From an uncultured Candidatus Saccharibacteria bacterium (GTDB lineage Bacteria; Patescibacteriota; Minisyncoccia; Phycocordibacterales; Zambryskibacteraceae), in contig CAYHLZ010000002.1 of NCBI GenBank assembly GCA_964357635.1, positions 513 to 64,512 of the forward strand: a DNA stretch of 64,000 bases, in the 5' to 3' direction. A program made the position numbers and the translations under genes. Of the stretch, positions 15,663 to 46,616 are shown one piece after another. Within the stretch, counting starts at the first letter, position 1; every line of letters begins with the position of its first letter. The notes under the pieces are model-generated. The model did not search any database and had not been told where the DNA came from. It was given only the letters and a program-made list of their open reading frames with translations.

Positions 15663-17009
15663 TTAAACAGTTAATAAGTTTCTAATCTGACCAACCTCTT
15701 CCAATAATGACTGGTCAACCTTAATGTCGCCTTTTATCTTTTCACACGAATGAATTACTGTGGTGTGGTCTCTACCGCCAAGCTTTTGTCCTATTGACGG
15801 GTAAGAAATATTAAAATCTTCTCGCAAGAGGTACATAACTATTTGTCTTGGTCTAATAACCTCTTTGTGTCTAGTTTTTTCATAAATACTATCCTCTTTA
15901 ATGTTATAGAAGTCAGAGACAATACGTACAACATCTTTAACTGCAATGGTTTTTTTAGGTTTAATGTTGTTTTTTATATAATTTCTAACATCAATCATTG
16001 TTATTTCCTTGTTTTTTAGCTGTGCGTGGCAGAGGAGAGTGTTGACGGCGCCCTCAAGGTCTCTAATGTTTCCATTTATAGTGTGAGCCAGGTAATCTAT
16101 TATCTCTGGAGAGAGGGGCACGCCCTGCTGTTTTGCTTTGGCGGAAATAATAGCAATTCTTGACTCTTTGTCTGGCGGAGGGATGTCAACCGTCATTCCC
16201 GCAGAAAGCCTTGATTTAAGCCTTTCTTCAAGCCCTGTAATGAAGTATGGGTGTTTATCAGAGGAAAATATAATCTGCTTATTACTATCATAAAGAGTGT
16301 TAAATAGGTGAAATAATTCTTCCTGAAACTTTTGTTTATCAGAGAAAAATTGAATGTCATCAACTATTAAAACGTCGTATTTTCTATATTTTTCTTTGAA
16401 AATAGTCATTTTCTGGTTTTGAAGAGCATTCATACAGTCCTGTCCGAACTGTTCAGATGTCATGTAATAAACCTTTTTATTCGGGTAAGTAGCCTTAATA
16501 TGGTTGCCTATTGCTTGTATTAGGTGTGTTTTACCGTGCCCAGTAGAACCATGTATGAAAAGTGGGTTGTAAGTAATACCAAGCTTTTTTATAACCGCTT
16601 GCGCTGCCGCATGAGCAAGCTCGTTGAATGGTCCGATAACAAAAGTTTCAAAAGTGTATCGCGGGTTTAGGTTGTCATCCTTGTTGACCTGGGTTTCTGG
16701 TAACGGAAGTTCTTTGGTATGTAGGTCTTGGGCCGTTTTTTCCTCCTTCCTTCTGGATTCCTCCTTGTTTACCACATACTCAATGGCGTGAATAGAGCCC
16801 TCTAGGCCACGAAGGCTTTTAAGAATAGTGTTGTGGTACTTAGTTAGAAGCCACTCCTTAACAAATGCGTTTGGCACCGAAAGGATCACTACTCCCCCAT
16901 CTTCCTTAACAATACGAGTGTCTTTAAACCAAGTTGTAAAGTTTGCACTGGAGATACTTAGCTCTATCTCCACTAAAACGCTTTGCCAGAGTTGCTTATA
17001 GTCAGTCAT
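15663..17009 (-). CDS. dnaA: Chromosomal replication initiator DnaA
   Basis: AAA+ Walker A 'GSTGHGKTHLIQAIGN', C-terminal DNA-binding helix-turn-helix, conserved neighbourhood. Confidence 0.9.
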   Translation of the reverse strand: MTDYKQLWQSVLVEIELSISSANFTTWFKDTRIVKEDGGVVILSVPNAFVKEWLLTKYHNTILKSLRGLEGSIHAIEYVVNKEESRRKEEKTAQDLHTKELPLPETQVNKDDNLNPRYTFETFVIGPFNELAHAAAQAVIKKLGITYNPLFIHGSTGHGKTHLIQAIGNHIKATYPNKKVYYMTSEQFGQDCMNALQNQKMTIFKEKYRKYDVLIVDDIQFFSDKQKFQEELFHLFNTLYDSNKQIIFSSDKHPYFITGLEERLKSRLSAGMTVDIPPPDKESRIAIISAKAKQQGVPLSPEIIDYLAHTINGNIRDLEGAVNTLLCHAQLKNKEITMIDVRNYIKNNIKPKKTIAVKDVVRIVSDFYNIKEDSIYEKTRHKEVIRPRQIVMYLLREDFNISYPSIGQKLGGRDHTTVIHSCEKIKGDIKVDQSLLEEVGQIRNLLTV

Positions 17010-17573: not shown

Positions 17574-18290
17574 ATGTCTTCTTTCTACCACACGGTTTTC
17601 TTTGACCCACTATACAACGGGTTAGTTGTTTTGTTTAAGATTTTACCTTGGGCTGATGCTGGTATTATTGTTATTCTTCTAACTGTTCTGGTTCGTATTA
17701 TTATTTTTCCTCTTTCCAAAAAGGCTATACTTACTCAAGTTAAAATGGCTGAGATTAGCCCGGAACTAGCAAAAATTAAGGAGAAATATAAAGACAAAAC
17801 AGAAGAGCAGGCAAGACAAACCCTCGCTCTTTACAAGGAAAAAGGGGTTAACCCATTTTCTGGAATATTTGTCATTATTATTCAGATTCCTATTATCTTT
17901 GCGTTGTATCAAATCTTTCTTCATCTTCCTGAGGTTAATCCGACTTTTCTATACTCGTTTGTTACTGCGCCAGATTATATCAACACCACCTTTCTTGGGG
18001 TTCTAGACATCACAGCAAAAAGTTTTGCTATTGCAGCTCTGGCAGCAGTTTCAACATTTTTTCAGTTTAAAATTTCTATGAAAGGACAAACCCCGCCAAC
18101 AGGTAACTCCTTCGGCAACAACTTGGCCCGAAGTATGCAGACTCAGATGAAATACTTTTTCCCAGTAATAGTTTTCTTTGTTTCTTATAATATCTCTGGG
18201 GTAATTGCTCTCTACTGGCTTACTACAAATCTTTTTAGTATCGGACAAGAACTTTTTGTTCGTAAGAAAATTAGAGCTCCTCAAGCCTGA
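17574..18290 (+). CDS. yidC: Membrane protein insertase YidC (short Oxa1-like form)
   Basis: Five TM segments in 238 aa with a conserved 'IQIPIIFALYQ' helix; rpmH-rnpA-yidC synteny. Confidence 0.8.
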   Translation: MSSFYHTVFFDPLYNGLVVLFKILPWADAGIIVILLTVLVRIIIFPLSKKAILTQVKMAEISPELAKIKEKYKDKTEEQARQTLALYKEKGVNPFSGIFVIIIQIPIIFALYQIFLHLPEVNPTFLYSFVTAPDYINTTFLGVLDITAKSFAIAALAAVSTFFQFKISMKGQTPPTGNSFGNNLARSMQTQMKYFFPVIVFFVSYNISGVIALYWLTTNLFSIGQELFVRKKIRAPQA

Positions 18291-19515
18291 GTGCCCAGAG
18301 AGTTAGGTCAATTTTGTTTATAAAGATTAAGTAATCTTCGTTTGGAGAAAGTTTTGGCTCTATTACATCGATGCTTCCTAGCTCTGTAGGTAGTTCTAGG
18401 AGAACCTGAGCAACACCAGTGTCAGTGTCAAAAGACCAAACTCTGTCATAAAAAACGCTTACTCCTTTGTACCAGTTATCTGGTTCGTTTATACCAATTT
18501 TGTTTGATGGCACACCACAGAAGACTAACGCTGTGTTTTTTGTACTCCACACACACTTATCGGCAAGGGTGGTAGCCGAAAGTTCATTAATATCATCAGC
18601 AGGAATGTTTTTTACAAACGACAAAGTTTCATTGTTGACGGCGTATGAATACAGCACCCGACTTCCTTGTGTATTAGACAGGGCTGTTAAAGCATTAAAT
18701 GGTCCAAGAATTTTTGTAAATGCCCCACTTGAGGTGTTTAACGAGTATGCATAACCAGGGACACTAAAGCTTGCTTTGGTGTGGACAACCAAGCTGTTGC
18801 CCGAAGTCATAAGACGCCAATTGGTGAAAGGTGAACTGAAAAGAGTTTTGAGACCAGAGCCATTAAACGCAGAAGAAACTATTGAGAGTGAATCTTCCAG
18901 AGAATAGATGAGGTTATCACCAGAGCCAACAGTCACAGAACCAATGTCTCCACGTATTGGAGTTGAGACAACCGTATAAAGCATGTCGGTTTCTGGCGAA
19001 CTTGTTGCTGTTGGTTTTGGTAGAGACAAAGCAAAAGACAAATTTTCTACCAAATCAGTGTCATCTTTAAGAAATCTTACAAGAACAGCCTTACCGTCCG
19101 TCCTAAAGTATGCCTCATAAATCTTCGGCAAGGTTTGGTTGGTAATCTTTGTTTTTTTAAGTGTCAGCAAATCAATCTCATAAATATGACCTGTTGCACG
19201 GTCCACATATCTTGCAACAGTGGTTGATGAATTTTTATTCAGAACCACTGCTCCAGCAACCGGAACATCAGAGAGCTGAAAAAATGTTTTCTCTGAAGAA
19301 TCCTCTTCATTTGAAACAGGTTCTTCGGTGGTTTCTGATGGATTTTCTGTTTCGGTTGTTGAAGAAGGAAGGTCGTCTCCAGAACCAAAGGGCAGAAGCC
19401 CAGAAACTGTTTCACTAAAAGGGGTACCAGAGCTTTTAAGAAACAGATATCCCCCAACTAGCACAGCAAGAAGCAGGATAGAGGTGATTATTATAATTAA
19501 AAACTTTTTTGACAT
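18271..19515 (-). CDS. Hypothetical membrane-anchored beta-rich protein (N-terminal TM, acidic S/T/E-rich linker, propeller-like repeats); last gene of the T4SS-like operon
   Basis: MSKKFLIIIITSILLLAVLVGGYLFL anchor; start overlaps the upstream pilin-like gene region; no recognised catalytic motif. Confidence 0.5.
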   Translation of the reverse strand: MSKKFLIIIITSILLLAVLVGGYLFLKSSGTPFSETVSGLLPFGSGDDLPSSTTETENPSETTEEPVSNEEDSSEKTFFQLSDVPVAGAVVLNKNSSTTVARYVDRATGHIYEIDLLTLKKTKITNQTLPKIYEAYFRTDGKAVLVRFLKDDTDLVENLSFALSLPKPTATSSPETDMLYTVVSTPIRGDIGSVTVGSGDNLIYSLEDSLSIVSSAFNGSGLKTLFSSPFTNWRLMTSGNSLVVHTKASFSVPGYAYSLNTSSGAFTKILGPFNALTALSNTQGSRVLYSYAVNNETLSFVKNIPADDINELSATTLADKCVWSTKNTALVFCGVPSNKIGINEPDNWYKGVSVFYDRVWSFDTDTGVAQVLLELPTELGSIDVIEPKLSPNEDYLIFINKIDLTLWALRLEEL

Positions 19516-19533
19516 AATATTAATTACTCAATT

Positions 19534-20397
19534 CTACGTTTGTGCATGCCAGTGGTTACCACGAGATGTTACCTCGTAAGTAAGTATTCCGATTCCTGGC
19601 ACCAACACCCTTGTTCCGTTTCTAGGACCAGATGCTTCTGAATTAAATTGTGATAAATAAGTATGAAGTGCTTGAGATTGGCGAAGGTCAATTGCTGCTC
19701 GACCGGGACCGTGTGTTTCGTGCCCACCTTCAGAGCCGCCAGTTATTGTTAAAGGGCAACCACAGAGGGTTGCCAACTGCATCACATGAAGAATGGTGGT
19801 TGGTGGTAGACCAACAACGTTTGTGCATCCTTCGGTTTCTCCGTTAACACAAGGACCATTATTTACCGACACGGGAGGTATGTTTTGCCCAAGCACCTGT
19901 CTAATTTGAGCATCTGCTGCCACTTGTTCTGGTGTCAGTGGGTATCCTGGGAGTACGTTACCACCACCTCCTCCAACAACAGGGGCGGGTGCGGTTGGTC
20001 GCGGGGCGCTAAAATTAAAATTCACCAAATCAGGATTAATGCTATTTAGAATAACCCAAGCACCTAATGCTAAAAGTAATCCGCCTATGGCATTTTGAAT
20101 AGTGTTTTTTGCCTCACTTTTTCCGGAAAAGGCGTCAGTGGACATATATTTAATACCACCGACAATTATCATAATAACAGCAAGCACTCCGGCGATGCCG
20201 ATAAGTAGAGAAAAGACGCCGGTGATGTATGGCACAGGACTCGTTCTTCCGCTTCCTTGGGTTGTTTCTGTCCCGGGCAAGGGTGCCAAAAGCTGATAAT
20301 CGGTTTGAGCAAATACTGGCGCGTTGTTAGCAAGTAAAACCAGAACGGCAAATACAAAAGCAATAAAAGCAAATTTTTTCATATTAGTTGTTTTCAT
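19534..20397 (-). CDS. VirB2/TrbC-like pilin-type protein fused to a Cys/His-rich C-terminal domain
   Basis: Signal peptide, then two hydrophobic helices separated by a short charged loop (pilin topology), then about 150 aa containing 'CGCP', 'GGHETHGPGRAAIDL' and 'NHWH'. Confidence 0.5.
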   Translation of the reverse strand: MKTTNMKKFAFIAFVFAVLVLLANNAPVFAQTDYQLLAPLPGTETTQGSGRTSPVPYITGVFSLLIGIAGVLAVIMIIVGGIKYMSTDAFSGKSEAKNTIQNAIGGLLLALGAWVILNSINPDLVNFNFSAPRPTAPAPVVGGGGGNVLPGYPLTPEQVAADAQIRQVLGQNIPPVSVNNGPCVNGETEGCTNVVGLPPTTILHVMQLATLCGCPLTITGGSEGGHETHGPGRAAIDLRQSQALHTYLSQFNSEASGPRNGTRVLVPGIGILTYEVTSRGNHWHAQT

Positions 20398-21094
20398 ATT
20401 GTATTAAGAAATTTTTATTGGCAAACTGCGTAACCTGGTACGTGTTTGATACACGCGCACGTATACTTGAAGCTCCTTTGGCATCATCGGGGGTGCGATA
20501 CGTTACCGAACTCCCCGTGTCTGTGCCCCCAACATTAGTGCCCCATTCGTACTTCAAAACATCGTCAGTGCGATCAAAAACACTAAAGAAAAAAGGAAAA
20601 GCCGTAAAAGTAACTTCTTTCCCCTCTAATTTATAGGTATTACCTACCTCTTTGTTGAATTTAAATCCATAAAGAGGATTGTTTTCATATATATAAAGAG
20701 AGGGCGTTAACGGGGTAATCTTAGTGGAGGCGCTTGCCAACACCGTTTTTTGACCATACTCGTCTGAAGAAGAAGAGATGATTTCTACCTTGATGGTTTG
20801 GGGTTTTGAAAGAATTGAGTCAAGAAAAGATATAGTATTTTTGCCAATCCCGTTTAAATTACCCAAAACTGTGCCAGTTTTTGTCCACTTATAGTTTAAG
20901 CTAGCTGGGTTACCGAGGCCGTGAGGTATTGCTACAAGAGTAATCCTAGACTGGCTTGACCACAGTGTCCTGCCTTTATAAAACGGAGGAACATAATTTT
21001 CTCCTTGCCAAAGAAGATCTACTTCTTGAGCCTTTAGAAAAGTTGTTGGCAGGATAAGTAGAGCAAGTACCAAAAGGAGAAAGGTTTTCTTCAT
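20384..21094 (-). CDS. Secreted hypothetical protein (signal peptide MKKTFLLLVLALLILPTTFLKA), beta-rich
   Basis: ORF within the T4SS-like operon; probable start at the internal Met at 21094, which precedes the signal peptide. Confidence 0.5.
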   Translation of the reverse strand: MKKTFLLLVLALLILPTTFLKAQEVDLLWQGENYVPPFYKGRTLWSSQSRITLVAIPHGLGNPASLNYKWTKTGTVLGNLNGIGKNTISFLDSILSKPQTIKVEIISSSSDEYGQKTVLASASTKITPLTPSLYIYENNPLYGFKFNKEVGNTYKLEGKEVTFTAFPFFFSVFDRTDDVLKYEWGTNVGGTDTGSSVTYRTPDDAKGASSIRARVSNTYQVTQFANKNFLIQYENN

Positions 21095-21135
21095 CCCCTT
21101 ATTATAACGAATCCTTTGGCAATTTTCTTTTGACA

Positions 21136-23007
21136 TTATTGACTTGTTGCTCCGGCCTCTTTTAACTCTCTTTGAGCTGCCTCCACGGCTGTTTCTTGGT
21201 TTTCTTCCGCTTCTTGTTTTGCCTTTTTAATAGCAAGCACTTGCGAGGGGTCGGAAGTGATAATCTGGTCTTCTGTATATGAAGCGATGTTTTTTATGGC
21301 AACGTGTTTTAGTCCAGCAAAAAAGATTCCTTCTCCCCTATCTGACTCCAGAAGCAAATATTTTTCCTCGTCTGTGAGATTAAAGGTTTTTTGAAGCTCG
21401 TCTATGATGGTGGGAGACTGCTTCATGAGAATCTGTATAGAAGAGTTGGTAATAATTGGCAAACCATAAGGACTCTTCAAGAAGTCGCCGACATCTTGCG
21501 TTATTGTCGCAACACCGAGGAAATATTTTCTTCCTCGCTTGACGAGTCCCATGAGGAAGGAAGCAGTGTCTTCCGATTTCATCATCCACCACGCCTCGTC
21601 TATAACCAAGAGACGTTTTTTGAGTTCTTTTCTGATAACGTTCCAAATATAGTGGGTAACAATGTACATGGCGATGGGCTTGAGTTCATCCTCCATGTCT
21701 CGCAGAGAGAAGACCACAAACTTTTTATTTATATCAACATTTGATGGTCTGTTGATAAATCCGGACCAAGTGCCTTTCGTATATTTGGAAAGTCTTTGAG
21801 CAAGAGATTCTCCACCCTCCATACCAGCAAGCACCATTTCAAAGTCAGACATTAAAGGAGGTTCAATATTACGAAAGTCTGAATCGGCAGTAATATCCTT
21901 GAGAGCGTATGTTTCAGTGATGGCGCGGTCAATAATAGCGTCTTCCTCAGCAGTTAAGCCACCCATCATTAGTCGGAAAAGACCGACTAGGTTAATAATA
22001 TTTGAGCGAAGCACGTTTGCCGTGCTCTCGTCTGGTCCAGGTATCGGTAGGTCAAAAGGATTTATATGGTGTTCTGAGTTAAGAGAGATTTTAAAATATC
22101 TACCACCTGTTGCTTCTGCCATGTACTCATACTCTCGCTCCGGATCTATCACGATCACTTCCGTGTCAAACATCAAGGTACGCAATATCTCAAGTTTTGT
22201 GGCATAAGATTTACCAGCACCAGACTTGGCAAACATAATTGAGTTGTAGTTTTCAAGAGAGAAGCGGTCAAAGAGCACCAAAGATGAGTTGTGCCTATTG
22301 ATACCATAAAGAATTCCCTTGTCTGAAGTTAGGTCAAAGGAGGTGAATGGGAAAAGAGAGGAAAGTGGAGAGGAGTTGAGCTTAGAATGCACCTCAAGAA
22401 GGTCGTTGCCAAGAGGAATGGTGCTTTTGTATCCCTGTTCTTGTTGGAAAAGAGCCGGTTTTACATAAATAAGTTTTGCTTCAAGAATAGATTTAATTTC
22501 TGACTCAACCTTATCTAACTCTGCGGCACTATCACCATAAATAGTGATATAAAGACCGACGTCAAAAAGTTTTTCCTGTGCTTGTTGAAGCTGGTCTCGC
22601 AGATTCTCAAGGTCTTGATAGGCAACGTCAAGCACTGGGTCACGCACCAACCCCTTTTCTTCTCTGCCGTGGATCTGACTTTGCACCTCGGCAACTTTTC
22701 TCTGGAACTGGCGCAACACCTTTGAAGTCTCAATAGGGTGAACAAAGATTGAGACATCAAAAACCTTGTCCATGTTAATAATGGGAGAAAACCAACCCTC
22801 GGAAAGAAAACGCGGATACGAAATAACAAAGAAACTTCTTAAAACCTTCTCACCAAGATTAATCTCCTTAGGTGTGACCTTGAGGGCCGATGGCGCAATA
22901 ATATCTTTGAGCTCCAGCACCCCTGCTTCAAAAATTTCTTTAGGCAAAATAGAAGAAATATCAGTCTTTGTTTCTTTTTTCTTAAATAATGAATCAAAAA
23001 TTGCCAT
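21136..23007 (-). CDS. VirB4/TrbE/CagE-family conjugation-type ATPase, C-terminal ATPase portion (split gene)
   Basis: Walker A 'FAKSGAGKSYATK', Walker B 'LLVIDEAWWM'; N-terminal 'IAPSALKV...SYPRFLSEGWF' matches the segment that follows the VirB4 N-domain. Confidence 0.8.
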   Translation of the reverse strand: MAIFDSLFKKKETKTDISSILPKEIFEAGVLELKDIIAPSALKVTPKEINLGEKVLRSFFVISYPRFLSEGWFSPIINMDKVFDVSIFVHPIETSKVLRQFQRKVAEVQSQIHGREEKGLVRDPVLDVAYQDLENLRDQLQQAQEKLFDVGLYITIYGDSAAELDKVESEIKSILEAKLIYVKPALFQQEQGYKSTIPLGNDLLEVHSKLNSSPLSSLFPFTSFDLTSDKGILYGINRHNSSLVLFDRFSLENYNSIMFAKSGAGKSYATKLEILRTLMFDTEVIVIDPEREYEYMAEATGGRYFKISLNSEHHINPFDLPIPGPDESTANVLRSNIINLVGLFRLMMGGLTAEEDAIIDRAITETYALKDITADSDFRNIEPPLMSDFEMVLAGMEGGESLAQRLSKYTKGTWSGFINRPSNVDINKKFVVFSLRDMEDELKPIAMYIVTHYIWNVIRKELKKRLLVIDEAWWMMKSEDTASFLMGLVKRGRKYFLGVATITQDVGDFLKSPYGLPIITNSSIQILMKQSPTIIDELQKTFNLTDEEKYLLLESDRGEGIFFAGLKHVAIKNIASYTEDQIITSDPSQVLAIKKAKQEAEENQETAVEAAQRELKEAGATSQ

Positions 23008-23008
23008 A

Positions 23009-23665
23009 TTAGGTTACTTTAATCGGCTTCTCTGTCTCGCCCGGGTTAAATGCTTTGTAGAAAAGCTCAATAACTTCTTCTGTACCAAGACGAACCACAC
23101 GAATGCCGGTTCGTATTAGTCCTTGCTCTACCACTGACAAACGTTCTTCAAGCTGGCTTCTGTCCTCGTCAAAACTTGCTTCAGTCTTACTGGATTTATC
23201 ATTATCGGTACCAAGTCCTAGACGTGAAGTAATGCCACTGGCAATACCTCCGCTTGACTGGCTGGTTGATAAAATGGCGGGACTATAAGGCACCACGATA
23301 AAGAAGTGTTTGGTCATAATGTTTGTGTTCTCGGTGAAGTTTTTGATGAATTCAATGTATTCTCTCACCTGAATCTTCATTAAATTGTTCGTCTGGTTTT
23401 TCTCTTGTCCCTCTAGAAGAGCGATGTAGGGGCGGATATCAAGTTTGCGAGATTGCACCACTATCTCAATAGAGAAATCAAGAGAATTTAGAAAATCTTG
23501 GAATTGGAAGAGAATTGCCTGCTTCTCATCTTCCGATTTTAGAGAAAAGTTTAAGGACGAGCAGAGAAGGATAGAGCGCATGCCTCCGTCTTTGAGGATG
23601 ACAGTACCGTCCCGCACCTCTTTGATGGGAACAAATTCTTGGGTAGCGTTTGTAGTAGGAGCCAT
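23009..23665 (-). CDS. VirB4-family N-terminal domain (CagE/TrbE/VirB-type) encoded as a separate ORF
   Basis: 'VPIKEVRDGTVILKDGGMRSILLCSSLNFSLKSEDEKQAILFQFQDFLNSLDFSIEIVVQSRKLD' and '...EEVIELFYKAFNP' match the VirB4 N-domain; stop TAA and next ATG form TAAtATG, a 1-nt gap in a different frame. Confidence 0.65.
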   Translation of the reverse strand: MAPTTNATQEFVPIKEVRDGTVILKDGGMRSILLCSSLNFSLKSEDEKQAILFQFQDFLNSLDFSIEIVVQSRKLDIRPYIALLEGQEKNQTNNLMKIQVREYIEFIKNFTENTNIMTKHFFIVVPYSPAILSTSQSSGGIASGITSRLGLGTDNDKSSKTEASFDEDRSQLEERLSVVEQGLIRTGIRVVRLGTEEVIELFYKAFNPGETEKPIKVT

Positions 23666-23672
23666 GCCTCAA

Positions 23673-24104
23673 TTATACCTTATCCTCGGTGTTTTCCGTT
23701 GTAGGATTAACGTTTTCTTTAATATCTAGGCTCCAACTAAGATCTCTAAGCTTTGATTCCGATAGTTTGGGTACATAGACTTGGTCTAAAGGTTTTGCAT
23801 CTCTTGGTCCGGCAACTGGCTTCTTCTCTTCCTTCTTCCAGAGATAGAGCTTGTTGGTCAAGGTGTATTTAACAAAAGCTTCTACTACGTTTATAAACGG
23901 TTTGCCGTTGATTTTGTAAAACGCCAATGCTCCAGCGAAGGCAAGTATGGGTAATGCAATTAAAATCGCTAAAAATTTTGGTAAAAGAATGAACAAAACG
24001 ACAGCAATACCAGCTCCACCAGCAACATAAATAAATTGCTTAAAGGTCATAGGGCCAAAAATCTTGTCTTCAATCTCTATAAATTGTGGTACTTGAAAGC
24101 GCAT
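23673..24104 (-). CDS. PrgI/VirB3-like small membrane protein
   Basis: 'MRFQVPQFIEIEDKIFGPMTFKQFIYVAGG' followed by two TM helices; sits just upstream of VirB4 as in Gram-positive T4SS. Confidence 0.55.
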   Translation of the reverse strand: MRFQVPQFIEIEDKIFGPMTFKQFIYVAGGAGIAVVLFILLPKFLAILIALPILAFAGALAFYKINGKPFINVVEAFVKYTLTNKLYLWKKEEKKPVAGPRDAKPLDQVYVPKLSESKLRDLSWSLDIKENVNPTTENTEDKV

Positions 24105-24113
24105 AAATTTATT

Positions 24114-24647
24114 TTACACTAACGGCTCTCTATACGGATCCTTTCCTTCTCCATATCTATAATCTGGCAAAGACGTCTTCGTTTCTTTTGGTTTCGGCGG
24201 TTCTCCGCCCGACTCCAGCCCGACAAAGTCATTCTGGCGGGGAACGACTTCAGTCGTTCGGGCGGGCTCTACATGTGGCACGCTGTGCGCCACCTCACCC
24301 TCTTCTACCATGGGCAGGTTATCACCAGAAACTTTTTTCTCCCCAATACTTTTTTCCACAATTGGACCAAGAATTTTCTCAGCGACAGAGTCTCCAATTT
24401 TGTTGGCTGTTTCTTGGGACACACTAACTGCCCGTATAATGTTTTGTACAAAATCATCCGGGTTCTCAAACGCATATAGAACAAACATAGTTTCCTGTTC
24501 AAGAGAAACTATTTGTTCGGGGTCTAAAGCATTACTTTTACCAATTTCCTCTACCAACGCTTTCCAAGGCAGGGCACTAATTGCCTGTTGCAGATTGGAG
24601 GGCAACTTATCAAACTGTTCTTTTATAAGTTTTTCTTCTTCGTTCAT
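24114..24647 (-). CDS. Hypothetical acidic cytoplasmic protein in the T4SS-like operon
   Basis: 177-aa ORF overlapping the upstream gene by 4 nt; no known motif. Confidence 0.45.
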   Translation of the reverse strand: MNEEEKLIKEQFDKLPSNLQQAISALPWKALVEEIGKSNALDPEQIVSLEQETMFVLYAFENPDDFVQNIIRAVSVSQETANKIGDSVAEKILGPIVEKSIGEKKVSGDNLPMVEEGEVAHSVPHVEPARTTEVVPRQNDFVGLESGGEPPKPKETKTSLPDYRYGEGKDPYREPLV

Positions 24648-26830
24648 GGTGTAGATGTTGTTCCTCCGGAAGGTGGTGGGGGTGTTGATGGTGGAGTTGC
24701 TTCTGGCGTTTCTTCTTCAGGCAAATCTCCTGATTCTTTGGCAACATCTTTATATGCCTCGATTAATTTGTCTTTTTTACTCTTTCCTGTTCTTATTCGA
24801 GCTGCCGCAGCATAGTTATAACCAGCAAGTTTTGCCCAAGGGGATCTTTCCACCATATCTGCATATTTACCTTTTCGTATTTCTGCCGCTGGTTGTATTT
24901 CCTTCAGGCTTTCTATTTGTTTGTCATAAGCAGCGGATATTATCTTTGTGTCTTCCTCTATTTTTTCTCTTGCCCTAATCGTCTCTTTCTTTAATGTCTT
25001 AAGTTTTTCTCTTTCAATGTCCAATTCTTTTAACTTTTCTGTTTTGACTCCAAAGTCAGCTGTTTCTAGTTCTCCTTCTAGTTTAGATATGGCATCAGAT
25101 GATGCTTTTTCTTTTGCTTCAGTCGCCCTCAATTGCTCTTTATTTTTTTCTTCCTTTTTCTTTATATCCGCCTGTTTGTTTGTTTCCGCTTCCTGTCTTT
25201 TTTTCTTTATCTCCTCTTTGTTACCCAACAGATTATCAAGTTTTTGTTTAGCCTGAAGCGCCTGTGGCGAAGTTTCTCCAAATTTTGTTTTTGCGTTATC
25301 ATATTCAGCTTTTGCCTTAGCCCTTGCTTTATCTGATGGGGCATATGATTCCGCCACCTTTGCTGCTTTTTCAGATTGTGCTTTTCTGTATCCAGAAAAA
25401 CCATCTTTAGTACCCTTGAACACTTTAGAATCAGCATCAAGAACACCTCCCAATCCGCCAGGAGCATTTCTTGCATCATAGCTTGCTGACCCACCCTTTC
25501 TTCCTGCCCAAAGAGCAAGTCTTGCACTTCGACTACCCTCAGCAGCTTTTCCTTTAAAGTACTCGCTTTCAGATACTGCGGTTGCTGCTCTACCAACCGT
25601 TTGTCTACCAGCAAACGCCGCTGTTCCGACAACAGCACCAGTCAAGAATTTGGTTGCGTTCGTTACATTTGAACCAGCCTTGTTTGCCCACGATTTGGCG
25701 ATACTAAGAGCAGCAAGGAGAAAGACAATCACAATCATAAAGTTCATAAACATAGCAAACGCTCCACTGGAAAGGGCAACTATCTCCTGCCCCCGCTCAC
25801 CTACAGCCGCAAGAGCGCCAAACTCGGTAACGGCACCTCCCGCCGAACCCAAAGAGGTCCTAATACCCCTTAGAACCTCAACCGCAATCCAAAGAATCAT
25901 AAAAAATATAGGGGCAAAAAACGCTTGCCCCACCAGAGTTTCTTTCCACTTATCTGCTGCTCCGCGTAGTGCCGGTAAAACAAAGGCAATAAAAGCTATA
26001 GGAGAAAGAATTAATACCAAAATTAAAACCACATAACGCACAATAAGCATGATTGCCATAGAGAAGAAGACAAAGGCGGAAATGACAAGCATGATAGAGC
26101 CCATCATAGTTATAGTGAGTATGGTTCCATTGCCGAGAGTGCCTCCGCTAAAGCTGTAAAGACTTTGCAAATTTAATTGTTGCATAAAAGCGTTTGAAAG
26201 ACCGCGTGATGACAGGGCGGTTGTGAGGTCAGTTAGAGTTCCGGAAGGTATGATTAGATCGTGGAAAAAGAGAGCCAATATATTGGCGGCATCAATGACC
26301 AGTTTGGTGAAGAAGAGACTGAAGTTTATAAGTATGGCAACGATGATGACGTTAACAATTAGTTTCTTGGTATCGCTTCCTACTCCCAAGATGGTTCGTA
26401 TCGCTGCATACAGGAGGATAAATATAAAACCCATGTTGGCGAGGTCACGGACGGCATCCCATGCATTATTTATGGCGGTTTCGTTAGCAGCATAGTTGTC
26501 AGACATGCTGATGACTGTGAAATAGACCACTGCATTTAAAACAACTCCGGCCAGGCCTGTCAAAAATCCCATAAACTGAAGGATTGACTCTGCCAAGGGA
26601 ATGACAACCCATGACATTATTTCGCACCCAAAATCAAACACCTCTGGACACAGTCCCTCCGATGATGCCCCTGACGGTTGGTCAGGTATACAACCGGGCT
26701 GAGGATCGACAGAGCACGGTGGTGGGGCTTGAGCCAATGTTGTTTGAGGAGCAATAAATCCACTTGTAGTAAAAACAATTACAAGAACGAAAAATAAAGC
26801 CGAAAATTTTTTCCAATACTTTTTCATCAA
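24644..26830 (-). CDS. VirB6/TrbL-like polytopic membrane protein with a long C-terminal K/E-rich coiled-coil and Pro-rich tail
   Basis: Signal peptide, Cys-rich extracellular segment (CSVDPQPGCIPD...CPEVFDFGCE), at least six TM helices, then about 250 aa of lysine/glutamate-rich repeats ending TPPSTPPPPSGGTTSTP. Confidence 0.55.
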   Translation of the reverse strand: MMKKYWKKFSALFFVLVIVFTTSGFIAPQTTLAQAPPPCSVDPQPGCIPDQPSGASSEGLCPEVFDFGCEIMSWVVIPLAESILQFMGFLTGLAGVVLNAVVYFTVISMSDNYAANETAINNAWDAVRDLANMGFIFILLYAAIRTILGVGSDTKKLIVNVIIVAILINFSLFFTKLVIDAANILALFFHDLIIPSGTLTDLTTALSSRGLSNAFMQQLNLQSLYSFSGGTLGNGTILTITMMGSIMLVISAFVFFSMAIMLIVRYVVLILVLILSPIAFIAFVLPALRGAADKWKETLVGQAFFAPIFFMILWIAVEVLRGIRTSLGSAGGAVTEFGALAAVGERGQEIVALSSGAFAMFMNFMIVIVFLLAALSIAKSWANKAGSNVTNATKFLTGAVVGTAAFAGRQTVGRAATAVSESEYFKGKAAEGSRSARLALWAGRKGGSASYDARNAPGGLGGVLDADSKVFKGTKDGFSGYRKAQSEKAAKVAESYAPSDKARAKAKAEYDNAKTKFGETSPQALQAKQKLDNLLGNKEEIKKKRQEAETNKQADIKKKEEKNKEQLRATEAKEKASSDAISKLEGELETADFGVKTEKLKELDIEREKLKTLKKETIRAREKIEEDTKIISAAYDKQIESLKEIQPAAEIRKGKYADMVERSPWAKLAGYNYAAAARIRTGKSKKDKLIEAYKDVAKESGDLPEEETPEATPPSTPPPPSGGTTSTP

Positions 26831-26833
26831 TAA

Positions 26834-28273
26834 TTATCTTTGAACAGTGACATATTGTGTGGTCGCACCATTTCCGTTAGAACAAGTGAGAATGAAGGTC
26901 ATTATAGGGTCTGTTACTCGCACGGACTCTCCTCCACTAAGAGCCTTAGGACCACTCCAACCCCCAGAGGCTGTGCAGGAAGTAGCGTTGGTAGCTGTCC
27001 AGTCAAGCGAAGCGATGGTAAAGAACGGAAGTTCCAGACGCTCAGCACTAAAGGTAACTACAGGGAGCGCTCCTCCGCCCCCACCTCCGAAACCTCCTCC
27101 AGGGACGGCGACATTAACGGAACGAGAAGTCGGTCCATAAGTATTTGTGCATGTAATAGAATATGTCTGACTTGCCGTTAAACTTGGAGTTAACTCTGTT
27201 CCACTTAGTGCTCTGGGACCACTCCAGCCACCGGATGCGACACAGTAGCTGGCATTGGTGGAAGACCAGGTTATGGTTGCTGTGCCGTTAAGTGCCACTG
27301 TGGTTGGGAAAGCATTGAGAGTCACCGTGGGTGCCAGAGGGTTGCTACCCACTGGTGGTGGAACACCCCCACCTCCACCTCCACCTCCACCTCCACCCCC
27401 ACCACTTAAGAGTCCTTGGGCACCAAAGACAAATCTTTGCAGGAGTTGACCGATGAGCGCGCTCACAAGCTCGTCAAACTCGTCTGCCAACTCAAGCTGT
27501 CTCACGCCAGTTCCTAAAACATTTTCAAGTTGTTTCTCAATTACTACACCAGGTGTTTGGGCATCACCCCAATCTAGACATGTGTTTGTGCCGTCAGTAC
27601 TTCGCCTTTCACACGGAGCGAATGTTAAGAAACCACTGCTCCAACTAAGTTGTTCTTTCTGAAGACCCAAGGCCTCTCTAAGTCGGGAGTTAAGTTCAAT
27701 CCGAGCTTCAACATACGACCCATACGGGTTATTGGCCCTGTTTTGTGTCATGGAAAACCATCCGTCCCATCCTCCTTGGTCAAAATCATCGTAGAAACCT
27801 TCAATATTTCCAACTACGTCAGACAAAGTACATTGAAATTGATAGTCTGACGAACCGATTCCTCCGCTGTTATAGGAATTCCTAAGAGATAATCTAATTT
27901 GAGTTTGAAAAGGTGAGCAAAGAAAGTTAAGATCAGTACCGTCGATAAACTCTCCAGCAAGCCCATCAGCAAGGTTGGTGAAAAACTGTTCCGGATTTCT
28001 TACAAAGGCGGGGCTCCCTTCAAAACCTTCATTTATCCACTCAATAGTGGAGTTCAAAATGCTTTCTATCAGGGTTCTGGCAAGAGTTATCGCGACAAGG
28101 TCAAGAGTTAGTCCGGGGACAAAGTATCCGAACGCGGTTATGCCCACCTCTTTTACAGTATTTGCTTGGTCCACAGTGGGGATTCCATATTGCGCCCCGG
28201 TCTTAGTTGGTAGGATAGGAACAAAGAGTATTACGATTAGCAGGAGGGCCAAAATGCGATTTTTATAATTCAT
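26834..28273 (-). CDS. Secreted protein with poly-Gly linkers and two Ig-like repeats (shared with the protein at 50063)
   Basis: Signal peptide; 'GGGGGGGGGGGGG' tract; repeats 'TNASYCVASGGWSGPRALSG' and 'TNATSCTASGGWSGPKALSG'. Confidence 0.55.
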   Translation of the reverse strand: MNYKNRILALLLIVILFVPILPTKTGAQYGIPTVDQANTVKEVGITAFGYFVPGLTLDLVAITLARTLIESILNSTIEWINEGFEGSPAFVRNPEQFFTNLADGLAGEFIDGTDLNFLCSPFQTQIRLSLRNSYNSGGIGSSDYQFQCTLSDVVGNIEGFYDDFDQGGWDGWFSMTQNRANNPYGSYVEARIELNSRLREALGLQKEQLSWSSGFLTFAPCERRSTDGTNTCLDWGDAQTPGVVIEKQLENVLGTGVRQLELADEFDELVSALIGQLLQRFVFGAQGLLSGGGGGGGGGGGGGVPPPVGSNPLAPTVTLNAFPTTVALNGTATITWSSTNASYCVASGGWSGPRALSGTELTPSLTASQTYSITCTNTYGPTSRSVNVAVPGGGFGGGGGGALPVVTFSAERLELPFFTIASLDWTATNATSCTASGGWSGPKALSGGESVRVTDPIMTFILTCSNGNGATTQYVTVQR

Positions 28274-29064
28274 ATATTACTGTTAAACATTATACCATTC
28301 GTGATAAGCACACTCTGAATATTTGTGAGAATATCTGATTCTAACTTAGTATTTTTCGCATAGTGATTCAGAGCGGCGTATGCTTTCGCTGGGTTTTTGG
28401 AACTGTCACTAACTAGTTTCAACGCCTCGGCATTTTCTAAGTAGTTATTTATAAGATCAAGATGATAAGAAGATAGAGAAACCGGCACTCCCACCAAGAG
28501 AAGCTCACTTGCCGCTGCCTGGAAGAACTTAGAAGTGGCTGACATGAATGAAGAGAAAGCAGGACTCGAAATATCTGAAAAATCGCGACCAGAAGCTTGG
28601 GCTGCCACCAAATTTTTATACTTACTGCGGATTGCCGTTAAACTTGCGCCATATGCCGCCATATTTTCTTCGTTATCGGGTACTACTATAACTTGATTTA
28701 AAAGGACTTTTGGTGCGGACAACTTAAAGCTTAGGATATCTTCGGCGTATTTATCGGCAAGGTTTAAGATATTTTCTCCAGAGATCTGACCCTGGGACTT
28801 AAGTGACATGTAGTCGGTAAAAATTTGCCTGCTTAAGAGTTCTTCTTGTGAAAGAGTAGTGGTGGAAAAAGCTCTCGTGGGTGTCGTAGAAGAACTTAAA
28901 AAGTCTTTCAAAAAGGCGTCGTCGGATGCAAACTCTAGAGGAGCTTGAACAGAGACCAAGGTAGCGGAATAAGGAGGAATTTTTATAAATCTAAACCACA
29001 GTGCCCCACCGATAAGAGCAAGAGACAAGAAAAGGGCGCCGATAAGACGAATTGACGGCATCAT
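28270..29064 (-). CDS. Membrane-anchored hypothetical protein (possible VirB8-like bitopic component); first gene of the operon
   Basis: N-terminal TM 'LIGALFLSLALIGGALWF', about 230-aa periplasmic-type domain; no motif recognised. Confidence 0.4.
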   Translation of the reverse strand: MMPSIRLIGALFLSLALIGGALWFRFIKIPPYSATLVSVQAPLEFASDDAFLKDFLSSSTTPTRAFSTTTLSQEELLSRQIFTDYMSLKSQGQISGENILNLADKYAEDILSFKLSAPKVLLNQVIVVPDNEENMAAYGASLTAIRSKYKNLVAAQASGRDFSDISSPAFSSFMSATSKFFQAAASELLLVGVPVSLSSYHLDLINNYLENAEALKLVSDSSKNPAKAYAALNHYAKNTKLESDILTNIQSVLITNGIMFNSNI

Positions 29065-29120
29065 ATTCTAGTATATCAGAGAATATTTCGCTAATTTGTG
29101 CATAAGTGTATAATTAATCC

Positions 29121-30104
29121 ATGCGAAGCCTCCTTATTCTTACCACCTTCTCCTTAGTGCTTGCTCTCGGCTTGTTTAGTTCTACGACAAAGGCAGAAAT
29201 CTTCACCTCAAACCTCACTGTAGGAAGTAGAGGTGTTGAGGTTTCGGCACTTCAGCAAATTCTTGTATCTGAAGGATATTTGGTTATGCCGACAGGCGTT
29301 TCTTATGGCTACTTTGGACCACTTACAAAATCAGCGGTAGCAATGTGGCAGTCAGCCAATGGAGTCTTGCCCACCTTGGGCTACTTTGGTCCAATTTCCC
29401 GAGCAACCTTATCAGCAAAAACATCTGTCAAGAATCCCGAACCTCCGACTCAGCCGACCATGCCCGTAGAACCGCCGTCAACGCCAGTTTCGGATTTGTC
29501 TTCCGGCATTTCGGCAAATTCGGACACACCGTTTGCTTTGGGCATGAGAGCAAATCGCATCCTATTTTTCCGAGCATCACCACTGGAAGTAAAACCCGGG
29601 GATATAGTTACTCTTGATGGTTCTGGATTTAGTAAAACTTCAAACAAAGTTTATTTTAGTGGTGGCAATGCAGTCGTAGCCACTTCTACCAATGGTACGG
29701 TTATGAATGTTGTTGTACCTCCAGGTCTCTCAAACGGAGAACACGAGCTTACTGTAGAAAATGTTTTGGGTTCTTCCGCCAATCCAGATTTAAAAATTAT
29801 AATTAGAGTAACAGACAACCCACAGCCACCACCACAAATCACAAGCGCATCAATCTCCGGCGATACAGTCACTCTTATCGGTACTGGGTTTACTTCTTCC
29901 AACAATCTTTCCACCACCTTTGGCGACAACCCAAGCTCAATTTTGTCAAACGGGACTACTCTAACTTTTCGCATCACCGATCTTTCTATGTATGAGAAGA
30001 TTAAACAATTTACCCAAGGCAAGTATCAAACTAGTCTTTGGATTTACATCTACAATGAACACGGTGCTAGTAGAGAGCCTTATCAATTGAACGTAAATAT
30101 ATGA
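29121..30104 (+). CDS. Secreted protein with a peptidoglycan-binding domain (PG_binding_1-like) and IPT/TIG-like repeats
   Basis: Signal peptide; 'GSRGVEVSALQQILVSEGYL...GYFGPLTKSAVAMWQSANGV' is PGBD-like; two 'G..VTL.G.GF' beta-sandwich repeats. Confidence 0.55.
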   Translation: MRSLLILTTFSLVLALGLFSSTTKAEIFTSNLTVGSRGVEVSALQQILVSEGYLVMPTGVSYGYFGPLTKSAVAMWQSANGVLPTLGYFGPISRATLSAKTSVKNPEPPTQPTMPVEPPSTPVSDLSSGISANSDTPFALGMRANRILFFRASPLEVKPGDIVTLDGSGFSKTSNKVYFSGGNAVVATSTNGTVMNVVVPPGLSNGEHELTVENVLGSSANPDLKIIIRVTDNPQPPPQITSASISGDTVTLIGTGFTSSNNLSTTFGDNPSSILSNGTTLTFRITDLSMYEKIKQFTQGKYQTSLWIYIYNEHGASREPYQLNVNI

Positions 30105-30511
30105 CTAAGAAAAAATTTCTTGCCCTCATTGTTGCCCAAACTTTTTTCTGGCTTTTCGCACCACTGACGCCAGTTAGAGCGCAAGTATCACCCGTGCCAG
30201 GTTTTGGTGGACTTATGAATTTTGATATTGCTTGCACCTGTCCTGCTAACATCGGTAATCTCTGGGTTTGGCATACACCCCTCTTTCTAACAGTAAGTCC
30301 CAGTCCGCTTACGGGTCCTCTGGCGTGGTCACCCTTTTACACAATTCATTACCCCATGTTTTCTTTTGGTGTGCCCGGAGCATATGATTTGGGCGCTTAT
30401 CTTCCCGGAGTTCAGGCTTGTTGGATGTTGATACCCACCATACCACCATCTTGCCTTCCGTTGATAAACGCAGGGCTAATGACCCAAGATGGCACTAGTT
30501 TAAGTATTTAA
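30101..30511 (+). CDS. Secreted Cys-containing hypothetical protein
   Basis: Signal peptide MTKKKFLALIVAQTFFWLFAPLTPVRAQ; overlaps the upstream stop. Confidence 0.4.
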   Translation: MTKKKFLALIVAQTFFWLFAPLTPVRAQVSPVPGFGGLMNFDIACTCPANIGNLWVWHTPLFLTVSPSPLTGPLAWSPFYTIHYPMFSFGVPGAYDLGAYLPGVQACWMLIPTIPPSCLPLINAGLMTQDGTSLSI

Positions 30512-33459: not shown

Positions 33460-34400
33460 TCTTGGCGCCCCTCTCTATGAGGGCCTATATCCCAGGGCAG
33501 GCTGGCAAACTTGTTCGTATGCCTGAAGTAGTCGGGTCAGGTAACTCTCAAACCATGACTCTTCTGGAAGGCTATTTAAACATTAATCCTACTGGTACCG
33601 GTGGAGCAGAGATTGCCATAGTTGATCGCATGGCACTTGAATCAAGTGGTGGCGGGAGTGAGGTGTTTGTTGACCTCGGTAAATCTGGCACAGGACAAAT
33701 ATCCGTCTATGTTGTGCGTAAGGGTGATACTCTAAGCGAGATTGCAGAAATGTTTGGCGTCTCCACCAATACGATTCTCTGGGCCAACAACATTAAGGCC
33801 AATTCTATTAAAGAAGGACAAGAACTTGTCATCCTACCCATCTCTGGTGTGCGTCACGTTGTAAAGAGTGGTGATACCCTCAAGTCTCTTGCCACAAAAT
33901 ATAAAGCGGATCTTGGAGACATCCTTTCATACAACGGACTTTCAACCGATAGCAAAATAAAAGCAGGAGACATTGTAATTATTCCTGATGGTGTTATTAG
34001 TCAAACCCAAGGTTCCATAGCCAAACCGTCTGGTGGGACAAACTATCCAACCTACGCTGGTTATTATATGAGACCAATAGTTGGTGGCATGAAGAGTCAA
34101 GGAATTCACGGCAACAACGGTGTTGACTTGGCTGCCTCTGTTGGCACACCAGTTCTTGCTGCAGCAGATGGAAAAGTTATCGTCTCGCGCACAGGAGGAT
34201 ATAACGGTGGCTATGGTACCTACGTGGTCATTAGTCACTCAAACGGCACACAAACTCTCTATGCTCACATGAATGCAAACAGAGTTTCAGTTGGCGAACA
34301 AGTTAGCCAAGGACAAAACATTGGTTCGGTTGGTAAAACTGGCCGAGTCACGGGCGCACACCTCCACTTTGAAATCCGTGGTGCCAAAAATCCTTTCTAG
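33460..34400 (+). CDS. LysM-domain M23 metallopeptidase (peptidoglycan hydrolase)
   Basis: Two LysM repeats (YVVRKGDTLSEIA..., HVVKSGDTLKSLA...); M23 motifs 'HGNNGVDLAA' and 'GAHLHFEIR'; start codon ambiguous. Confidence 0.8.
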
Positions 34401-34452: not shown

Positions 34453-35982
34453 TTACACGTCGAATTTTTTAGGGCGATACTCAATTGCTTCTAAGATGTG
34501 ATTGTTGGTAATCTCTGGGGCACCTTCAAGATCAGCGATAGTTCGCGCCACTTTTATCATCCGGTGATAGACACGAGGAGAAAATCCGAGTCGCTCTGCA
34601 GCCAAGTCAAGAGTTTTTCTTGACTCTTTATCCAGGGCGACAAGAGAAACCATATCTCTGGCGCTCATTTCTGAGTTTCTTAATATTTTCTTACCTTTTT
34701 TACTGAAACGTTCTCTTTGTGCCTCTCGCGCTTTCTCCACTTTTGTTCTGAAAAACTCACTTTTCTCGCCTTCAGAGACGCCAGAGAGTTCAGACGGCAA
34801 AACCCTGTCTACCTCAAGCCAAATATCTATGCGGTCCATGATAGGACCCGACATTTTTCTTCTATATCTTGAAAGGGCGGAGGGTGTGCAGACACAAGGT
34901 TTGCCTCGGAAGCCAAAATTTCCGCAAGGGCATGGGTTCATCGCAGCCACAAGCGAGACATTTGCCGGAAACTGCGCCGTACCCTTGGCACGCGAGATAG
35001 ATATCACCTTGTCTTCTAGGGGCTGCCTCAAACTTTCTATAACCCTCCTTTCAAATTCTGGAAACTCATCCATAAAAAGTACTCCACAGTGAGCCAGAGT
35101 AATCTCTCCTGGTCTTGGTGTTGTTCCTCCTCCGACAAGTGAGACGTAAGAAGCAGTGTGATGCGGTGCGCGAAATGGCGGGTTAGTAATAAAGGTCTCT
35201 GAAAGAATGCCCGCAACAGAATGAATGCTCGTTGCCTCAAGCCCTTCTTCAAAAGTAAGTTCTGGTAAGATGCCAGCAAAAGCTTTGGCAAGCATGGTTT
35301 TACCTGTGCCTGGTGGACCATACATTGCGCAATTGTGTCCTCCGGCTGCCGCGATGAGAAGTCCGCGTTTGGCTCTCTCCTGGCCTCTAATATCTGAAAA
35401 ATCTATGCTCGCGATTGATTTTATTTTATCTACAACAGTTAACTCTGCTTGCGGGAGTTTAGTAGTACCAGAAAGATGTTTGATTAAATCTTCAAGTGAG
35501 GAGACTCCAAAAATACTTACGCCATCAATAATGGCTGCTTCACGAACGTTATCCGTCGGCACATAAAGTTCTTTGAAATCATTTTGCTTTGCAAATCTGG
35601 CAATTGGTAAAACTCCGGGTACTTTACGAACCTTACCATCCAGAGACAATTCGCCCAAGAATAACTTTTTCTCTGGGTCAAAAGAAATATCTTTATTAGC
35701 GACAAGATATGAGAGAGCAATTGCTACGTCAAACGAAGTTCCTTCTTTCCTCTGATCTGCTGGAGCGAGTGAAATAACAACCTTATGATTCTTTGATTTT
35801 GGAGAATCTAGACCGGAGTTTTTAATAGCTGCCGAGACGCGGTCACGTGCTTCTTCTACTGCTTTGTCTGGGAGACCAACGATAGTGAAAGCATTAAGAC
35901 CACGAGAAATATCGGTTTCTACGGAAACAGGAATTACAGATAAAAGATTTGTTTGTGCGCTGTAGACCCTTGAGAAACTCAT
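34453..35982 (-). CDS. comM: YifB/ComM-family Mg-chelatase-like AAA+ protein
   Basis: N-terminal Lon-like domain, Walker A 'GPPGTGKTMLA', C-terminal ChlI-type region. Confidence 0.85.
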   Translation of the reverse strand: MSFSRVYSAQTNLLSVIPVSVETDISRGLNAFTIVGLPDKAVEEARDRVSAAIKNSGLDSPKSKNHKVVISLAPADQRKEGTSFDVAIALSYLVANKDISFDPEKKLFLGELSLDGKVRKVPGVLPIARFAKQNDFKELYVPTDNVREAAIIDGVSIFGVSSLEDLIKHLSGTTKLPQAELTVVDKIKSIASIDFSDIRGQERAKRGLLIAAAGGHNCAMYGPPGTGKTMLAKAFAGILPELTFEEGLEATSIHSVAGILSETFITNPPFRAPHHTASYVSLVGGGTTPRPGEITLAHCGVLFMDEFPEFERRVIESLRQPLEDKVISISRAKGTAQFPANVSLVAAMNPCPCGNFGFRGKPCVCTPSALSRYRRKMSGPIMDRIDIWLEVDRVLPSELSGVSEGEKSEFFRTKVEKAREAQRERFSKKGKKILRNSEMSARDMVSLVALDKESRKTLDLAAERLGFSPRVYHRMIKVARTIADLEGAPEITNNHILEAIEYRPKKFDV

Positions 35983-46087: not shown

Positions 46088-46162
46088 TGGTGCCCCCAGC
46101 AGGAATCGAACCCACATCACCTGTTCCGAAGACAGGCACTTTATCCATTAAGCTATGGGGGC
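46088..46162 (-). tRNA. tRNA-Arg (anticodon TCG), CCA encoded
   Basis: Reverse complement GCCCCCATAGCTTAATGGATAAAGTGCCTGTCTTCGGAACAGGTGATGTGGGTTCGATTCCTGCTGGGGGCACCA folds as a cloverleaf; anticodon loop CTTCGGA. Confidence 0.8.
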
Positions 46163-46599: not shown

Positions 46600-46616
46600 A
46601 AGAACGTTTCTCACTA

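Follow-up and report, generated by a model that had tools for sequence, protein, structure and literature searches.

We analysed a window of 64,000 nucleotides (nt) from contig CAYHLZ010000002.1 (assembly GCA_964357635.1), deposited under the name of an uncultured Candidatus Saccharibacteria bacterium. It carries ten long minus-strand open reading frames (ORFs), running from position 29064 down to 18271, several of which encode recognisable parts of a type IV secretion system (T4SS). In order of transcription these are:

28270-29064, minus strand: g1, bitopic membrane protein of 264 amino acids (aa), encoded at the head of the operon (one N-terminal hydrophobic segment, residues 4-22)
26834-28273, minus strand: g2, secreted protein of 479 aa (signal-like segment at residues 7-25)
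24644-26830, minus strand: g3, polytopic, putatively 'extended VirB6-like' protein of 728 aa (hydrophobicity and a weak TrbL/VirB6 match)
24114-24647, minus strand: g4, acidic protein of 177 aa (isoelectric point 4.6) with no membrane segment, presumably cytoplasmic
23673-24104, minus strand: g5, small membrane protein of the PrgI/VirB3 family, 143 aa (PF12666)
23009-23665, minus strand: g6, TrsD-like protein of 218 aa, the VirB4 N-terminal domain as an ORF of its own (NCBIfam)
21136-23007, minus strand: g7, VirB4-type ATPase of 623 aa (NCBIfam conju_CD1110; PF19044 P-loop_TraG)
20384-21136, minus strand: g8, secreted or anchored protein of 250 aa (hydrophobic segment at residues 18-36)
19534-20397, minus strand: g9, VirB2-like T4SS pilin (residues ~1-125), followed by a linker and a conserved C-terminal domain (~150-287)
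18271-19515, minus strand: g10, membrane-anchored protein of 414 aa (membrane segment at residues 6-24)

The successive stop-to-start gaps from g1 to g10 are -4, +3, -4, +9, +7, +1, -1, -14 and +18 nt, and junctions this tight indicate a single transcription unit. A second gene caller, run independently on ENA contig ERZ1292619 ('Hain_H41_01um'), returned the same ten genes; this contig originates from a 0.1-µm groundwater fraction (Hainich) and carries an identical VirB4 protein. The preliminary description, made from the letters of the window, had proposed ten co-transcribed minus-strand genes; the ORF list, the junctions and the second gene caller bear this out, and its order of products, from a bitopic protein to a beta-propeller-like one, agrees with our domain calls. 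Its range for the operon, 18271-30511, is right for the ten genes (18271-29064) and also takes in two plus-strand ORFs that lie outside the operon. A consensus scan found no excess of promoter-like sites over shuffled sequence and no convincing terminator inside the operon; terminator-like sites numbered 20, against 13.7 (standard deviation 3.6) in shuffled sequence. The 3' ends of g10 (minus) and yidC (plus) overlap convergently by 20 nt (18271-18290), with no space for a terminator between them.

The motor of the system is a VirB4 ATPase. The g7 product matches the NCBIfam model conju_CD1110 (E=1.7e-112, 377 bits, curated cut-off 325) and the Pfam family P-loop_TraG, PF19044 (5e-26), and its ATPase motifs are intact, with a Walker A sequence AKSGAGKS, read from the translation, and a Walker B sequence LLVIDE at residue 466. 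No VirB4 paralogue was detected by phmmer among all window ORFs of at least 40 aa. The adjacent g6 aligns with positions 101-233 of VirB4_plasma (E=4.7e-13), with TrsD (E=1.7e-5) and with positions 2-118 of the CD1110 model (all NCBIfam), and its precomputed annotation is PF26593, TraC-like. Of 80 related loci, 77 carry it as a separate ORF (210-216 aa); the split VirB4 is therefore the normal state of this gene pair and no frameshift; the N- and C-terminal parts of VirB4 noted earlier are indeed separate conserved genes. Two genes upstream of g7, with only g6 between, lies g5, which scores 49.8 bits against PrgI (PF12666, E=5e-13, Pfam cut-off 27), has a hydrophobic hairpin at about residues 25-65 and recurs in 77/80 loci at a median identity of 55%.

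The pilin gene g9 scores 31.2 bits against T4SS_pilin (cut-off 26.6). Its product has a signal peptide and a two-helix hydrophobic hairpin fitting the pilin profile, as in pilins of the VirB2/TrbC type, and the predicted model places a confident helical hairpin there, similar to a solved conjugative pilin. It is the only pilin gene in the window, which holds no array of them. The large protein g3, present in 61/80 loci, is likely, though not demonstrated, to be VirB6-like: at least seven hydrophobic segments within residues 75-375, followed by a charged, coiled-coil C-terminal half, rich in Pro and Thr and some 300 aa long, give it a topology that fits VirB6, as does its gene position.

The operon sits among core genes of the chromosome, with yidC, rnpA, rpmH, dnaA and dnaN on one flank and ksgA, uvrD/pcrA and a LysM-M23 peptidase gene on the other. 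We compared every window gene by tblastn with 80 species-level loci and found the order uvrD-ksgA-[g1..g10]-yidC-rnpA-rpmH-dnaA-dnaN kept in about 50 species-level genomes, essentially all of the loci of sufficient length. VirB4 (21136-23007) has a median identity to the window protein of 82%, against 62% for DnaA (15663-17009), and is the more conserved of the two in 53/53 loci with both; the loci were picked by VirB4 similarity, so the VirB4 figure is somewhat inflated. DnaN, YidC, KsgA and UvrD (48-55%) all lie below VirB4, g6 is conserved at about the level of DnaA, and the extracellular and membrane partners reach 26-40%. The identity of VirB4 covaries with that of DnaA (Spearman 0.65, 53 loci). 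A VirB4 more conserved than DnaA and covarying with it suggests vertical descent under very strong constraint, and the gradient across the operon fits a highly constrained motor with fast-evolving surface parts. The GC content of the operon (0.41-0.46) lies within the window range of 0.36-0.47, with no compositional break. Over the whole window we counted 24 matches to DnaA boxes against 14.6 expected, with no cluster beside dnaA, and the origin was not located.

The relatives of g7 also place the host. The protein is identical to one from an NCBI 'Patescibacteria group bacterium' metagenome-assembled genome (MAG) and 79-93% identical to proteins from MAGs of Zambryskibacteria, Taylorbacteria, Parcubacteria and Paceibacterota. 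The 120 best VirB4 matches listed and all 80 loci are metagenomic (identity at least 79%), and their taxon names, where given, are those of Patescibacteria MAGs, some of them 'uncultured Candidatus Saccharibacteria', or of unclassified 'bacterium'. We take the host to be a groundwater Patescibacterium of the Paceibacteria (Zambryskibacteria-like) with a reduced genome, in line with the minimal-genome host of the preliminary description.

Pfam searches of 38 window ORFs (all those of at least 300 aa and several shorter ones, a dozen or so of 150-250 aa falling outside the scan) revealed neither a relaxase nor a coupling protein of the VirD4 type. The combination of relaxase and VirD4/TcpA that marks a conjugative T4SS is thus absent from the scanned ORFs, no complete canonical conjugative module occurs among them, and the locus is syntenic in about 50 species. 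The window does contain two PF00437 ATPases, at 6566-8269 and 53910-55664 (both plus strand). They are not VirB11, since both are long PilB-type motors of type IV pili and the gene at 53910-55664 lies beside PilC; the earlier observation that VirD4, relaxase and VirB11 are lacking from the window therefore stands for the scanned ORFs.

A separate TrsD-like ORF beside VirB4 and a position near dnaA, dnaN and ksgA are the marks of the patescibacterial T4SS clade, and we consider it about 90% probable that the locus is a chromosomal, vertically inherited T4SS of the Patescibacteria type. Several observations count against this assignment, or against the completeness of the machine. Profile searches with hidden Markov models, proposed as a check in the preliminary description, placed VirB4, PrgI/VirB3 and T4SS_pilin above their curated cut-offs and VirB6 below: g3 matches TrbL/VirB6 (PF04610) at E=3e-3 and 17.7 bits, under the cut-off of 25.9, and such weak VirB6/TrbL matches occur in 2/11 members of its family (the window protein and 1/10 orthologues). 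No VirB8-like component (PrgL/TcpC, NTF2 fold) was matched among the operon proteins by Pfam or NCBIfam, and no VirB1-like component (PrgK) was confirmed there by the same searches. An hhalign comparison with a reference set from pCF10 (PrgC-PcfC) spanned g3 and PrgH over the full length without significance, and returned nothing for the operon families against PrgK and PrgL; the set consists of single-sequence templates and is insensitive, even g5 against PrgI scoring 1%. Homologues of VirD4 do occur in most Patescibacteria genomes (PMC12102498), so that one window cannot decide whether the system is 'stripped-down', as it had been called. Finally, the main internal objection to the pilus mechanism proposed below is that the helical packing of VirB2-type pilins may not accommodate a further 140 aa on each subunit.

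This C-terminal domain of g9 deserves special attention. AlphaFold2 models it with a confidence (pLDDT) of about 95, and in the window protein it is predicted to be confidently folded and metal-site-like, with invariant residues C212, C214, H226, H229, D237 and H282 and a motif HW[H/D]. The domain was found in 663 protein clusters (50% identity, E<=1e-3) and, among the matches listed, is mostly C-terminal in proteins of 270-330 aa. Among 62 positional orthologues of g9, sporadic C-terminal matches to SLT (4.3e-6), CHAP (2.4e-3), M15_4 (2.6e-3) and He_PIG (1.2e-11) give a hint, no more, that the pilin C-terminus can be occupied by different wall-active or binding modules. The residue pattern had suggested a LAS/M15 zinc peptidase and thereby a candidate for the missing VirB1 function; no test supported this, the zinc site H-x(3-6)-D ... 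H-x-H on a Hedgehog/DD-peptidase fold was not found in the domain, and we withdrew the proposal. Fold searches were weakened by the helical hairpin, which dominates the two-domain model, and sequence-profile searches of the PDB with g3, g9 and g10 yielded nothing meaningful. The same domain also ends a 611-aa non-pilin protein (P0415); the segment preceding it there resembles a cell-wall '3D'/MltA-like domain by eye, without support from a PDB sequence search. An apparent further carrier of 1359 aa (P0399) proved to be a spurious, repeat-driven match.

The remaining five members (g1, g2, g4, g8 and g10) belong to no family by Pfam or NCBIfam, close to the five or six without a recognisable domain counted previously. 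In g2, a conserved module spans the N-terminal 290 aa or so (invariant residues include W79, G83, C119, C148, N156, P183 and T240-P241-G242) and precedes two Ig-like repeats of about 80 aa, each introduced by a poly-Gly linker. Many homologues stop after the N-module, at about 285 aa, and others append Flg_new_2, SdrD_B, Bact_surface_Ig-like, F5/8 type C (discoidin) or fn3 domains. Judged by its sequence, this is the architecture to be expected for a machine-anchored adhesin. A DUF4141 match (1.3e-5) in two of 36 homologues is a possible lead. The AlphaFold2 model of g2, built from a 65-sequence alignment, is unusable (pLDDT 49.8), and the idea that the N-module is VirB5-like was dropped, the PDB profile search having yielded low-complexity matches only. 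Inside g2, at 27364-27403, the hexanucleotide CACCTC is repeated 6.7 times in tandem; by its coordinates the repeat encodes the 13-glycine run that joins the N-module to the first Ig-like repeat, and its length could change by slippage.

The extracellular domain of g10, separated from the membrane segment by an acidic linker, is conserved (36 orthologues, mean column identity 39%; C321, C333 and several Trp are invariant) and is possibly a beta-propeller, given weak PD40, DPPIV_N or DUF5050 matches in at most 5/36 members; g10 itself occurs in 62/80 loci. The g8 product looks beta-rich by eye and is encoded immediately 3' of VirB4 in 74/80 loci; its orthologues are mostly about 330-345 aa long, and the copy in the window and its nearest relatives are about 85 residues shorter. 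Where they are detectable, g1 (18/80 loci, about 26% identity) and g4 (29/80 loci, about 31%) keep their places, g1 in a constant position and g4 always in the order g3-g4-g5. Neither Pfam nor NCBIfam gave a match for g1, g4 or g8, and Pfam searches of their orthologues were equally blank. N-terminal signal or anchor segments are present on g1, g2, g8, g9 and g10, and every non-cytoplasmic product has a Sec-type signal or anchor.

Two plus-strand genes between ksgA and the operon complete this region, encoding a PG_binding_1+TIG protein of 327 aa at 29121-30104 (TIG 2.5e-13, PG_binding_1 3.2e-8, Pfam) and a small Cys/Pro/Trp-rich secreted protein of 136 aa at 30101-30511. They co-occur, each in 13/80 loci at this same place. 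The former had been proposed as a wall anchor of the secretion system; its restriction to so few related loci marks it as a variable neighbour, and the pair at 29121-30511 is probably a small variable insertion at the upstream edge of the operon and not a component of the system.

In Gram-negative T4SSs the set of VirB2, VirB3, VirB4 and VirB6 extracts pilin from the membrane and polymerises the pilus, and the coupling protein is not needed. Given the conserved core of VirB2, VirB3, VirB4 (with TrsD) and a VirB6-like protein, together with the Sec-type signals and anchors, we infer that this locus assembles a host-contact pilus or stalk without a coupling protein and that g2, g8 and g10 are its extracellular partners, a mechanism that we judge slightly more likely than not. 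PrgI/VirB3 (g5) and the VirB6-like g3 would provide the membrane docking site for the VirB4 ATPase g7 and its N-domain g6; the g6/g7 motor would then pull the Sec-inserted pilin g9 out of the membrane and polymerise it into a surface filament, with no coupling protein involved. Sec-exported g2, with its conserved module and variable adhesin-like ends, and g8 and g10 may build or decorate the outer part and touch the host cell, and the system would serve an epibiotic lifestyle rather than the conjugation of a plasmid or an integrative and conjugative element (ICE). A function other than conjugation, already suggested in the preliminary description, corresponds to the published consensus on such systems and would extend to this locus.

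We regard two other functions as unlikely to be the primary role. The machine could mainly be an importer, bringing host DNA, host RNA or other macromolecules into the epibiont; ComB of Helicobacter pylori and the archaeal Ced system take up DNA in the absence of a coupling protein. The lack of coupling protein and relaxase among the scanned ORFs is consistent with import, as is a weak match of g7 to the archaeal DNA importer CedB (1.1e-9, far under the cut-off); T4SSs have been proposed as a route of nucleotide acquisition on the ground that competence is dispensable in S. epibionticum (PMC11665869), and uptake of host RNA together with possible T4SS pili is described for a cultured relative (10.64898/2026.06.21.733656). 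Against import, sequence does not fix the direction of transport, Pfam and NCBIfam revealed no nuclease and no protein binding DNA or RNA among the operon products, and that preprint itself leaves the uptake mechanism unresolved. Equally doubtful is a machine that exports proteins, whether effectors or Sec-delivered periplasmic substrates as in Bordetella Ptl, onto or into the host cell. Effector delivery has been speculated on (PMC10633639, PMC11665869), five products (g1, g2, g8, g9, g10) have an N-terminal signal or anchor, and the ends of g2 orthologues are variable and of adhesin or lectin type; on the other side, neither a candidate effector nor a coupling protein was found in the locus, and the secreted products are conserved in position and look structural rather than like cargo.

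The pilin raises a further point. Should the C-terminal domain be incompatible with the VirB2 lattice, g9 would act as an enzyme or receptor anchored in the membrane and no filament subunit. More speculatively, the Paceibacteria T4SS 'pilin' might serve as a carrier, each subunit presenting an enzymatic or binding domain, with the pilus or its base cutting the wall of the host or of the cell itself and opening a coupling-protein-independent conduit for the import of host macromolecules such as RNA; we think this rather improbable. An origin of the locus as what remains, or as the core, of a conjugative ICE or plasmid of the ordinary kind within the chromosome is very unlikely: its parts trace back to conjugation genes of Gram-positive bacteria (CD1110-type VirB4, PrgI, TrsD) and a tyrosine recombinase gene lies 9 kb off (38145-39086), but the position among core genes is identical in about 50 species, VirB4 is conserved beyond DnaA and covaries with it, relaxase and coupling protein were not found in the scanned ORFs, there is no GC break, and ksgA, uvrD and other core genes lie between recombinase and operon.

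We have identified a number of further genes in the window. Type IV pilus genes on the plus strand comprise the PilB-type ATPase with an MshEN domain (53910-55664), PilC/T2SSF (55674-56885), several small ORFs and an unassigned 490-aa protein (57961-59433); the other long T2SSE ATPase is encoded at 6566-8269 (plus). The window thus holds both surface-filament systems, T4SS and type IV pilus, that are reported to be essential in Saccharibacteria. Adjacent proteins of 374 and 681 aa (50063-53245, plus) contain PKD/K319L-like and Flg_new_2 (InlB B-repeat) domains, the latter common to many g2 orthologues. Just past uvrD lie a LysM-LysM-M23 peptidase gene (33462-34400, plus), with a counterpart in the same relative place in 7 related loci, and a gene for a ComM/YifB-type Mg-chelatase-like ATPase (34453-35982, minus). 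Six tRNA genes on both strands (46088-46843: Arg-TCG, Gly-GCC, Pro-CGG, Pro-TGG, Pro-GGG, Gly-TCC) include three tRNA-Pro isoacceptors in tandem.

The finding is correct and not new: papers published between 2023 and 2026 describe the system, where it lies in the chromosome and the absence of conjugation genes from it. In a survey of 3,035 Patescibacteria genomes, Quinonero-Coronel et al. 2025 (PMC12102498) found that patescibacterial VirB4 forms a monophyletic clade inside MPF-FATA, that TrsD is its most frequent partner, with PrgI/VirB3, VirB6 and VirB2-like pilins close to virB4, that relaxases are nearly absent and coupling-protein genes distant from virB4, and that in Paceibacteria and Microgenomatia the T4SS lies close to dnaA, dnaN, rnpA, rpmH and ksgA. 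Wang et al. 2023 (PMC10633639) showed T4SS and pilins to be essential in a cultured Saccharibacterium (Ca. Southlakia epibionticum, SEML1_0006-0019). The role of these systems was 'completely unknown' as of late 2024 (PMC11665869); a 2025 review counts them as established newcomers in the T4SS superfamily (PMC12857230), and a bioRxiv preprint (10.64898/2026.06.21.733656) describes tubular structures at the host interface of the cultured relative, strain OT8.

With a T4SS in about 80% of the genomes of very diverse Patescibacteria, and essential in the one species tested, the locus offers a clean, compact Paceibacteria example of such a system; its organism is uncultured, and the locus alone does not make the function of these systems testable. 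Three leads are possibly new: a VirB4 constrained more strongly than the replication initiator DnaA, a single pilin with a folded C-domain that is present in hundreds of protein clusters, and a g2 that pairs a conserved N-module with variable adhesin-like ends. They leave the published picture unchanged. The conserved extracellular partners g2, g8 and g10 are obvious candidates for host recognition.

Compared with known systems, the locus agrees best with the T4SS of the Patescibacteria clade (PMC12102498, PMC10633639): it has VirB4 with a separate TrsD-like N-domain, PrgI/VirB3, a VirB6-like protein and a VirB2-like pilin, it lacks a relaxase and a nearby coupling protein, and it lies beside dnaA, dnaN, rnpA, rpmH and ksgA as in Paceibacteria. 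It differs in having one pilin gene, whereas Saccharimonadia and Microgenomatia have pilin arrays of 2-11 genes, in the conserved pilin C-domain, which is not mentioned in PMC12102498, and in the accessory g1, g2, g4, g8 and g10 without a family. The Gram-positive MPF-FATA systems (pCF10 Prg/Pcf, pGO1 Trs, Clostridioides difficile CTn2 and Mycoplasma ICE) provide the best NCBIfam models, namely CD1110-type VirB4, Mbov_0397 VirB4, TrsD and Mbov_0395 pilin-like, and the order g3-g5-g6/g7 is collinear with PrgH-PrgI-PrgJ (VirB6-like, VirB3, VirB4) of pCF10. In contrast to those systems, PcfC/VirD4, relaxase, a PrgK-type hydrolase, a PrgL/VirB8-like protein and an LPXTG adhesin were not recognised here, a VirB2-type pilin that they normally lack is present, and the locus is chromosomally fixed. 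With ComB of H. pylori, the archaeal Ced system and Bordetella Ptl it shares a VirB4-centred machine that has no coupling protein or relaxase nearby; Ced is set apart at the level of sequence, the CedB match to g7 reaching 37.5 bits against a cut-off of 700, which does not amount to membership.

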